From Haplodiscus bocki (Eukaryota): a stretch of 64,000 bases of DNA. Where the stretch lies: assembly GCA_965655095.1 (NCBI GenBank), contig OZ296652.1, positions 18,538,001 through 18,602,000 of the forward strand, given 5' to 3'. The position numbers and the translations under genes were made by a program. The notes below the pieces were generated by a model. It did no database searches, was not told the DNA's origin, and saw nothing but the letters and a program-made list of their open reading frames with translations. This document shows positions 36,496 to 39,400 of the stretch, piece by piece; the stretch's first letter is position 1, and each line of letters begins with the position of its first letter.

Positions 36496-39400
36496 GGTCT
36501 CCGAGCTCAACCACTGACCAGTCCGTGAATTCAAGACTCAGCTTCAACATTTTCTACTTCGCCACCGGAGACACCCAAAAAGATATTGGCTGAGAAAATG
36601 AAATCATTTTAGATACTGGAGCTTCTTGTTCAATCATAAAGTATCGAATTTTTTGGGAAATTTGCCAAACTCAGCACCCAACAGAAGCACCAAACGGACA
36701 AAGACTTACTCTGGTCAAGTTGTGCACATGATCGACTCCGCAACAATAAATTTCAGTTACGACCCGGACGGACATTTTTCGTTCCCTTTAACTCTCTGGA
36801 TAACCGATTTGAAAACTCAAAACCACTTAAGTATGGACTTCTGTCGAAAACAGGTATCTGGCATCCACTTTGATTTACCCAGAATTGAACTTAAAGAGCC
36901 ACAAACTACTGTGTGTTATGGAAGCCTTCATCAGAACAAATCTTACCCTTTCAATTCGCAAAACCTGACAATACGAACCCCAAATGCGATGCACATTGAA
37001 GCCAAGAGCGCAAGATGCTGGAAGTATTCCCCTGAAGATTCCGACGCTCAATTCCCACTTTGATCAACCTTTCACCCTGACCGCAATGCTGTCGGTACGG
37101 GACTAAATTTGTCAATGTTTTTTTGTATTCAATCAGAATCGAAATAGTTGATACTGATGGAAAGTAATAAGAAACACCAAATCACCTTACCGAAGGGCCG
37201 AATTGGTTTTTCATCATTGGATGTCTCTGACATTGATGAACCAAAGTATCAAATACGAGACGCTTATGAGCTAACAAACGCAATCCTTTCGACAAATGAA
37301 CGAAACAACGATTGTTTCCTACTCCACTCAACAATTCCTTCCCAGTCACACGACGAGTTTTTGTAAATAGTCTATGGCAAGGAAAATTCGATGCTCGAAC
37401 AGCCCAATTCGATTGGACATTGTATCTCCACAGACACTCATATGAGCAAAGGGTTTGCTCTGTTCCTATCAAAAAGAATTCCGCGGCCAAGGAGAACATG
37501 CAGACAAGCCAACCTTCTTAAGGATCAAGTATTCCCTTTCTGGGACTCTTCATCTAGACGGTAAATCTATAACCTGGTACCGAAGGAGAAACTACTCAGA
37601 TAAAACAGATTTGTCAACTTTAGCTATAACATTGCAAAATATGCAAGCCTACGCTATAATGCACGGAGTTTCAACAAATCCCACACTAAAAACTGGATGT
37701 GGACTTGACCAACTGTACTGGCAAGAGGTAGTCAAACTCCTACGAAATTTCTTTGCTTATTCAGACATACAAATTGTGGTCTACTCCTTGGACGAACATG
37801 CATTTCACGCTATGTCCACTGGAGGAGATCCGGAAGTCTATTCCGAAGATAAGATAGATCGATATAGCGAGGAATTTCATTTGAACGAAAGAGAAATGGA
37901 GACCGATTTCACCAGCGACGCTAAGTCCTGTCAACCAGCTTGGGACGAAAAATTTCCCAATTTACGCCCGAAAGAACAAAGTGAATCTCTGATTGAGTAT
38001 AATCTTCGATACCAGCCAAAAGAGTTAGCTGAGTACATCAAACAGTTTAACTTGCAATACTCAGACATTACCGACAATGAAAAAACCCTCCTCATTGATT
38101 TGCTGATCGACTTCAAAAATGTGTATTTCCTCCACAAATTTGATGTGGGAAAACCCGACAGAACTTTCACGTGACATTGAAACCAAATGTGGAGTTGAAA
38201 CGTCAACGAGCGAGTAAAGTGCCGCTACACCTAAAAGCCAAACTCGAGAAACTGCTAACACAATTTAAGGACGCCGGTATCATTCGAGAAATGGGCGATG
38301 ATGACAAAATTGGATCTCGCTTTGTTAACCCCATAATTCTGATGCCAAAGAATGACTACGTCAAACTAGTCATTGATGCTCGCAATCTGAATACAGTGAC
38401 TGACCTAACAAACTATTCCTGGCCATTAGAAACAGTTCAGATGATTATGACCAGAGTGAACGGAAAGTTCTTCTCAGTCAGCGACTTGTCCTGTGCATAC
38501 CATCAAGTACCTCTTACCCTCGAAACAAAAAAATTGACAGAACTTCATCATCGGCTGACGACAAAATACCTTCACCTGAGGATTCAACGGTCTGCGTGGC
38601 CTACCCAACCTCTTCAATCGCTTAATGACGATTCATTTCGACCCACTAATCAGAAAAAACGAGTAATTACCTACATTAACGACGCCATCATGCAATCGAA
38701 AACCAGAGGCAAGATTTTCACCATCATCAATGAGTATCACACCCTTCTGTGGAAGGCTGGGCTAAAAGCTGCCCCAGACAGGACGTTTTTCTGCCTAAAG
38801 AAACTAAAGTTCTTCGGACGCGTTATCTCACCAGATGAGATTCAGCCAATAGCAAAGCTTGTGGACGCCTTGAGGAACCTCAAGTCACCACATCGTAAGC
38901 GAGACGTTATGAAGGTCTTGGGGTGTCTTGGATTCTAAAGCTGCTGTATCAAGAACTTACACGTTGATAGTGAGCCCTTCTATGACTCAATTAAACACTC
39001 TACACCATTTCACTGGAACGAAGAACATGAAAAATTGTTTAACTCCATCATGGAACGAATACACAAAGATACAGTTCCAGCATTTCGTTCTACTGATTAT
39101 CCGTTTCATATTCATCTGGACTCTTCAAATGTTGGTACAGGTTGTATTCTTATCCAACAATTCTAAGAGGGAAAGAGAATTACCTCTTTTAACTCTCGTG
39201 TATTTGACAGAGCAAAACAAAAAATGTCCACTCTCCATCGAGAACTATGTGAAATCGTATCAGCCCTCCAGGTTTACGAACATTACATAGTTGGATCACC
39301 ATTTCCCATTTATCTCTACTGTGATCATAAACCAAGGGGGACAAAAAAGACCACTATCACATCGCTTTCTCCGCTACCATGTGATCATTACAAAAATCCA

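Follow-up and report, generated by a model that had tools for sequence, protein, structure and literature searches.

A macrodomain of the TARG1 (OARD1, C6orf130) type is embedded in the Pol polyprotein of a Ty3/Gypsy-type LTR retroelement, between the protease (PR) and the reverse transcriptase (RT). In intact relatives of this element the domain is in frame with pol, is predicted to adopt the TARG1 fold and appears to be under selection at its functional columns. On balance, we lean towards the interpretation that the Pol of intact members carries a TARG1-type hydrolase that would clear host ADP-ribose from the proteins or cDNA of the element. The copy from which the analysis started lies in a window of 64,000 nucleotides of the Haplodiscus bocki assembly (contig OZ296652.1), this window being the whole stretch of DNA analysed; taken alone, it is a dead element that is of interest only as a pointer to its intact relatives.

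The element of the window is 17.9 kb long and decayed, and carries the macrodomain in pol together with env-like and TRAF-MATH remnants; in three-frame translation its gag-like, pol, env-like and MATH pieces are every one broken. The Ty3/Gypsy assignment follows from the TG...CA LTRs, the target-site duplication and the PBS-like site, together with the Pol order PR-RT-RNase H-integrase and a Ty3-like RT. The parts of the element, in window positions, are:

31561..33851, plus strand: 5' LTR (TG...CA), with the 4-bp target-site duplication CAGC directly before it
33855..33872, plus strand: PBS-like sequence with a TGG start, 3 nt past the 5' LTR (from the sequence)
35191..36122, plus strand: gag-like region, broken, with a degenerate zinc-knuckle-like motif (by eye)
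36513..36900, plus strand: start of pol with the aspartic protease, DTG at 36612, broken (tblastn to the intact relative P0073)
36901..37363, plus strand: post-protease linker domain (mapping to intact P0073)
37367..37790, plus strand: TARG1/OARD1-type macrodomain (match of its repaired translation, macro profile, intact relatives)
37791..38260, plus strand: acidic spacer and N-terminal lead-in of the RT (mapping to intact Pol)
38261..39440, plus strand: RT and RNase H, broken (Pfam RVT_1 and RT_RNaseH; tblastn)
39773..41162, plus strand: integrase core, SH3-like domain and Pol tail (Pfam; mapping to P0073)
43682..45599, plus strand: env-like glycoprotein gene, broken (Pfam Monjiviricetes_fusion; by eye, a hydrophobic stretch towards the end)
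46560..47066, plus strand: TRAF-type MATH domain remnant, between the env-like gene and the 3' LTR (Pfam, TRAF4 structures)
47144..49475, plus strand: 3' LTR (TG...CA), with CAGC directly after it

No tRNA matching the PBS-like sequence was found in one paper's supplementary tables. The gag-like region gave a Retrotrans_gag lead in the Atlas (score 0.93, on only 119 shared features) and no gag match in a Pfam scan, and the protease call is supported by Pfam gag-asp_proteas matches on the relatives P0073 and P0005. For the post-protease linker the Atlas returned unnamed clusters, the nearest named ones being protease-bearing at 0.77-0.80; the idea of a dUTPase-like remnant thus gained no support, and a linker profile had no match among seven other Pol linkers (best E 0.08). 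The env-like gene shows three co-linear Monjiviricetes_fusion matches (E 2e-4, 0.07 and 0.002), all below the curated cut-off. The MATH remnant reaches 36.4 bits with Pfam TRAF-mep_MATH (cut-off 27.4) and matches TRAF4 structures at E about 1e-6, and is a possible second captured host-signalling module of the element. Further coding-like stretches, one of them on the minus strand, lie before gag (34420-35100), between pol and env (42482-43210) and at 41588-42049, none with a convincing Pfam match. Elsewhere in the window, DNA polymerase B-, integrase-, capsid- and cysteine-protease-like ORFs were seen by eye at 9-3089, 13686-16804 and 21700-29800, which we take to be decayed Polinton/Maverick-like remains; the Pfam scan did not confirm such labels in the window. 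The first two of these regions are inverted copies, 65% identical. An uninterrupted ORF of 483 aa for a DEG/ENaC (ASC) channel at 59421-60872 on the plus strand (Pfam, E 2e-27) indicates an animal genome.

Within pol, the macrodomain motifs reported by the first-pass annotation of this DNA are all present, HCISTDTHMSKGFA and YNLVPK in one frame and GCGLDQLYW in the next. The frameshift that it had described inside the domain falls directly after the codon of the catalytic Lys (just past 37585), and the Lys and Asp that it had called retained are both there, the K84-equivalent codon at 37583-85 and the D125-equivalent codon at 37707-09, the numbering being taken from the PDB chain range and the alignment. 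The Asp of GCGLD (D125) is a catalytic residue in TARG1. A macro profile, run over the whole window as that annotation had proposed, matched just two pieces, 37367-37600 (iE 5e-17) and 37587-37805 (iE 2e-19), and the idea of another macro copy in this stretch was rejected; Pfam alone did not detect the window macrodomain. When the domain was translated with X placed at the breaks, it matched TARG1/C6orf130 chains of the PDB at E 1.5-1.9e-14, with five TARG1 sequences among seven matches, and DarG weakly (E 2.4e-4, 20.5 bits). The window copy is unable to make a macrodomain protein: an in-frame stop lies inside the domain at 37562-64 and another directly upstream at 37364-66. It also departs, including at the T83-equivalent site, at 5 of 25 class-conserved columns, a set defined by conservation of 85% or more among 100 macrodomains outside the family of the window element.

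The element as a whole is dead in this copy, through stops, frameshifts and the loss of part of the integrase. Compared with the intact Pol P0073 (1827 aa), the window pol contains 14 stops, changes frame at least 8 times and is missing the part that matches residues 1115-1369, including the integrase zinc-binding domain. At 2.3 kb the LTRs are long, and their divergence is uneven: of 54 mismatches in 2230 aligned bases, 37 fall in the first 400, where there are many gaps too; elsewhere they differ at 17 of 1830 positions (about 0.9%). With such divergence, only about 1-2 stops would be expected to have arisen after insertion, against the 14 found in pol. Since heavy decay of pol goes together with near-identical LTRs, this copy probably decayed first and was then re-inserted in trans as a dead passenger; the same picture could also result from LTR homogenisation or from an assembly effect.

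The arrangement of the domain was read from intact relatives of this dead copy. Mapping of the window pol on P0073, a natural Pol, confirmed the embedding between protease and RT that the first-pass annotation had proposed. One frame of P0073 encodes PR, macrodomain, RT, RNase H, integrase and an SH3 domain, with the order PR-RT-RNase H-integrase given by Pfam, and the best PDB match of the protein is Ty3-G Gag-Pol (E 6.8e-55). A linker of about 150 residues separates PR from the macrodomain, and a spacer of about 110-150 residues separates the macrodomain from RT. A search among longer proteins gave 192 matches among 329 candidates, the best 120 of which were examined. The order PR-macro-RT was found in a single ORF in all 21 relatives that have both flanks, defined as at least half of PR plus part of RT within one ORF; the others of these 120 have PR only (37), RT only (26) or neither (36), and P0077 is a rearranged relative. 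As the 21 are uninterrupted, the concern that the domain might be out of frame with pol in intact copies did not hold. A full-length search with the macro region of P0073 yielded four same-lineage proteins among 215 candidates and was too insensitive for a survey.

The macro fold, whose absence had been raised as a possible objection, is predicted for the macrodomain of P0073: folded with a 60-sequence alignment, this natural intact domain reached pLDDT 95.6 and TM 0.89 to TARG1 in complex with ADP-ribose. A model of PR, linker and macrodomain together, from a shallow alignment of 20 sequences, reached pLDDT 35 and was set aside. Among 48,161 chains, TARG1 was the best match of the macrodomain model (Z 21.7, rmsd 1.5, 135 residues aligned), and Foldseek placed TARG1 at ranks 1 to 8, so that TARG1 is closest by both sequence and structure. 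The values for other macrodomains were Z 19.2 for DarG, 16.6 for Poa1p, at most 13.8 for RNA-virus macrodomains and 12.7 for MACROD2, and membership in the RNA-virus (MacroD-like) class was rejected on this comparison. Of the joint TARG1/DarG class assigned at first, the TARG1 part thus stands (E 1.5e-14, Z 21.7) and the DarG part was abandoned, because NCBIfam NF048014 scored 20.5 bits against a cut-off of 250 and matched only profile positions 26-151 of 338. No DarT partner was matched among the ORF pieces of this decayed element that were scanned with Pfam (28 + 11 pieces).

Across the relatives, the K84 site is kept in 114 and the D125 site in 116 of the 120 listed, which are mostly close copies. 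More distant comparisons are provided by P0329, the representative of a subfamily of 415 members that is 48% identical to P0073 in the macrodomain: the two agree at 24 of 25 class-conserved columns against 45 of 118 others (Fisher p 3.3e-8). Similarly, P0073 and P0138 agree at 23 of 25 class-conserved and 37 of 116 other columns (p 2.2e-8). An in-frame macrodomain is kept in the representatives of 415-854 member sequences. By this column pattern, the macrodomain of intact members is under selection at its functional columns. What speaks against this is its overall divergence, which equals that of the linker and PR and greatly exceeds that of RT and RNase H (subfamily identities of 48% for the macrodomain, 52% for the linker, 51-58% for PR, 80% for RT and 94% for RNase H).

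The first-pass annotation had stated that macrodomains occur in some other retroelements and that the position between PR and RT is unusual, and had suggested a survey of insertion positions across Gypsy Pols. In an exhaustive search, 2751 proteins matched at E <=0.001, and the best 150 of these were compared by BLAST and 70 scanned with Pfam; a profile search among longer proteins gave 288 matches, of which the best 120 were listed, and 21 proteins from both searches were scanned. The survey sample is thus the top of two ranked lists and no census. Among the matches listed, 13 Gypsy-type proteins of other lineages have a TARG1-type macrodomain that could be placed, always inside Pol: in eight it follows RNase H (seven of them with integrase behind), in five it follows integrase (P0171 being placed by eye only), and in none does it lie between PR and RT. 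Both statements were thus borne out in this sample, in which TARG1-type macrodomains occupy two other sites in several unrelated Gypsy Pols. The fragment P0173, whose ORF lacks RT and by eye has a protease-like end ahead of the macrodomain, may represent another PR-side case and hence an exception. The macrodomains of these other lineages mostly keep the HC-x-S/A-x-D, TK and GCG-x-D motifs.

A tree built from the RT-RNase H region of 13 Pols gives one well-supported side each to the PR-RT group and to the group with the macrodomain between RNase H and integrase, and splits the post-integrase proteins over two positions. For three sites to be occupied in at least four Pol lineages, at least three insertion events into Pol are needed. 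Judged from these sequences, capture of a macrodomain into Gypsy Pol is recurrent, and this recurrence matters more than the PR-RT position itself. The macro tree does not prove separate captures from hosts (a single clade of 18 LTR-borne macrodomains is not rejected, AU p 0.112), and the insertions would be either separate host captures or moves between elements. The PR-RT macrodomains form one group (SH-aLRT 93-94), in one tree beside the post-integrase macrodomain of P0171. A macro tree of 121 rows was built by a quick method; four vertebrate-TARG1-like rows and rows covering fewer than 115 residues were left out of the macro trees, and short rows labelled as non-retro in them may be element fragments.

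Several other architectures were observed. Between RNase H and integrase, P0278, P0324, P0269 and P0340 carry an extra macro-like copy that is degenerate, and P0321 combines integrase, chromodomain, macrodomain and a weak rhabdovirus-glycoprotein match (E 0.002) in one ORF. In three proteins that look like those of non-LTR retrotransposons (P0331, P0341 and P0326), a TARG1-type macrodomain stands beside PHD/GDSL-esterase or endonuclease domains, the arrangements being PHD-macro-esterase, macro-esterase and an endonuclease with a macrodomain. Many DNA ligase 3 proteins have a TARG1-type macrodomain ahead of BRCT (P0187, P0228, P0280-P0315, including other fusions). Among the cellular matches this domain is often joined to DNA-repair enzymes, namely to ligase 3, UDG, TatD, NADAR and, according to precomputed Pfam annotation, a PNKP-like protein.

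Excerpts of two sources describe TARG1 as stripping ADP-ribose off Glu/Asp, nucleic-acid terminal phosphates and thymidine (PMC8501950, PMC11088682), and K84 as being needed to remove it from DNA (PMC8501950). The presence of the macrodomain inside Pol in every LTR case that could be placed suggests that it works where Pol works, and we count the fusions of cellular TARG1-type macrodomains to DNA-repair enzymes in favour of an eraser. Beyond the frame, fold and selection described above, we infer its catalysis, packaging, cleavage and substrate. Its location in Pol would bring the macrodomain into the particle and the pre-integration complex, where it may remain attached to RT or be released by the element protease; no protease cleavage sites were identified around the macrodomain in Pol. 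There it would remove host-added, Glu/Asp-linked ADP-ribose from element proteins, or alternatively act on nucleic-acid intermediates such as cDNA or RNA ends or modified thymidine, as ADP-ribose left in place would block reverse transcription, integration or gap repair. Many active Gypsy elements have no macrodomain, and since they do without, the domain would be an accessory.

Other functions are conceivable for the same domain. An active eraser freed from Pol might damp host innate signalling in the manner of alphavirus and coronavirus macrodomains, together with TRAF-MATH, which we consider unlikely even though the same element has an env-like gene and the remnant of a TRAF-type MATH domain. 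Pol is made in low amounts, which speaks against such a role, and in 13 of 13 placeable cases from other lineages the macrodomain lies inside Pol and in no separate ORF. Viral macrodomain hydrolases are described as virulence factors in the consulted part of PMC7018654, in line with this proposal, but those of RNA viruses belong to another subclass (Z at most 13.8, versus 21.7 for TARG1). Next in probability, and likewise improbable, is a reader of ADP-ribose or PAR by which the pre-integration complex would be held at PARylated chromatin or nicks, much as some Gypsy integrases are guided by chromodomains. The macrodomain of P0321 stands directly behind a chromodomain, and the other lineages have theirs at or near integrase (eight RNase H-integrase and five post-integrase proteins). 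A pure reader would even be compatible with the column conservation, because the residues that are kept form the wall of the ADP-ribose pocket as well; in the window lineage, however, the domain lies about 900 residues upstream of integrase and normally would be cut away from it, and both the catalytic Lys and Asp are kept. Clearance of O-acetyl-ADP-ribose or ADP-ribose-1''-phosphate, or repair of RNA or tRNA-primer ends, is very improbable: the PDB labels TARG1 an O-acetyl-ADP-ribose deacetylase, Poa1p is a structural neighbour (Z 16.6) and CNPase or macro ORFs exist in fish ERVs (PMC4977317, in excerpt), but Poa1p is farther than TARG1 or DarG and tethering in Pol brings no obvious benefit to these activities. 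That a host fragment captured once is merely tolerated in the Pol linker is scarcely credible, despite the decay of the window copy and a subfamily identity as low as that of the linker, given that functional columns are kept across >50% divergence (which largely refutes it), that the frame is maintained in the subfamily representatives and that the same domain type recurs in other Gypsy lineages.

Counter-defence enzymes that an element has captured are a guide to the defences that it faces. The presence, in the Pol of several unrelated Gypsy lineages, of a TARG1-type domain that is selected and apparently catalytic suggests that LTR retroelement replication is subject to host ADP-ribosylation, an effect of which we found no description. 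A bolder extension, which we put forward as doubtful, is that animal hosts widely hold back LTR retroelements by ADP-ribosylating their proteins or cDNA, a barrier so far unrecognised, which Gypsy lineages would have answered repeatedly with a Pol-borne eraser at three sites. The window lineage, with TRAF-MATH and an env-like gene, would then be a "complex" element with two captured counter-defence modules. The isolated domains of natural intact members can be tested by existing TARG1 and DarG assays.

Macrodomains captured by retroelements were already known, and we did not find their recruitment into Gypsy Pol described. Literature listings and abstracts yielded no report of a Gypsy Pol with a TARG1-type domain, and the listings gave none on ADP-ribosylation restricting a Ty3/Gypsy element; the domain may well have been noted already in TE database notes, bioRxiv supplements or subscription journals, which lay beyond these listings. 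The word "macro" is absent from the main text of an errantivirus survey (PMC13524379), and of its 14 occurrences in the supplements the four displayed are species names. A term search found no mention of macro in PMC13343379, PMC5408684 and PMC4299795, and the consulted portions of PMC8195603 and PMC4695847 contain nothing on a macrodomain in Gypsy Pol.

Among known systems, TARG1 (PDB 4J5S, 2LGR) is closest, sharing the fold, 33-37% identity, the catalytic Lys and Asp and the HCxSxD and GCGLD motifs. It is a free cellular enzyme, whereas here the domain is embedded in a retroelement polyprotein and its activity is predicted; a TARG1 loop with Gly-Ala has Ser-Lys in the retroelement macrodomain. 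The DarG macrodomain (PDB 5M3I, 5M3E) belongs to the same structural subclass (Z 19.2, TM 0.86) and shares the catalytic Lys with TARG1 (PMC8501950, in excerpt), but is only 21% identical, and the retroelement domain has neither the C-terminal part of DarG nor a visible DarT partner. With the env-carrying Ty3/gypsy elements (errantiviruses), as portrayed in the parts of PMC13524379 consulted, the window element has in common the LTR-gag-pol-env layout with, here, the remnant of an env-like gene whose glycoprotein is putatively class III-like. Macro-domain ORFs have been reported in fish epsilon-like ERVs (PMC4977317, citing Basta et al. 2009); going by one sentence of this review, these too are macrodomains captured by a retroelement, but their carriers are retroviruses and they are described as additional ORFs. 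Finally, the other Gypsy Pols (P0278, P0323, P0324, P0335, P0340, P0348 and P0269; P0300, P0257, P0268 and P0321) have the same macro subclass inside Pol and differ in its site, which lies either between RNase H and integrase or past the latter, and in an RT-RNase H region only 27-32% identical to that of the window lineage.
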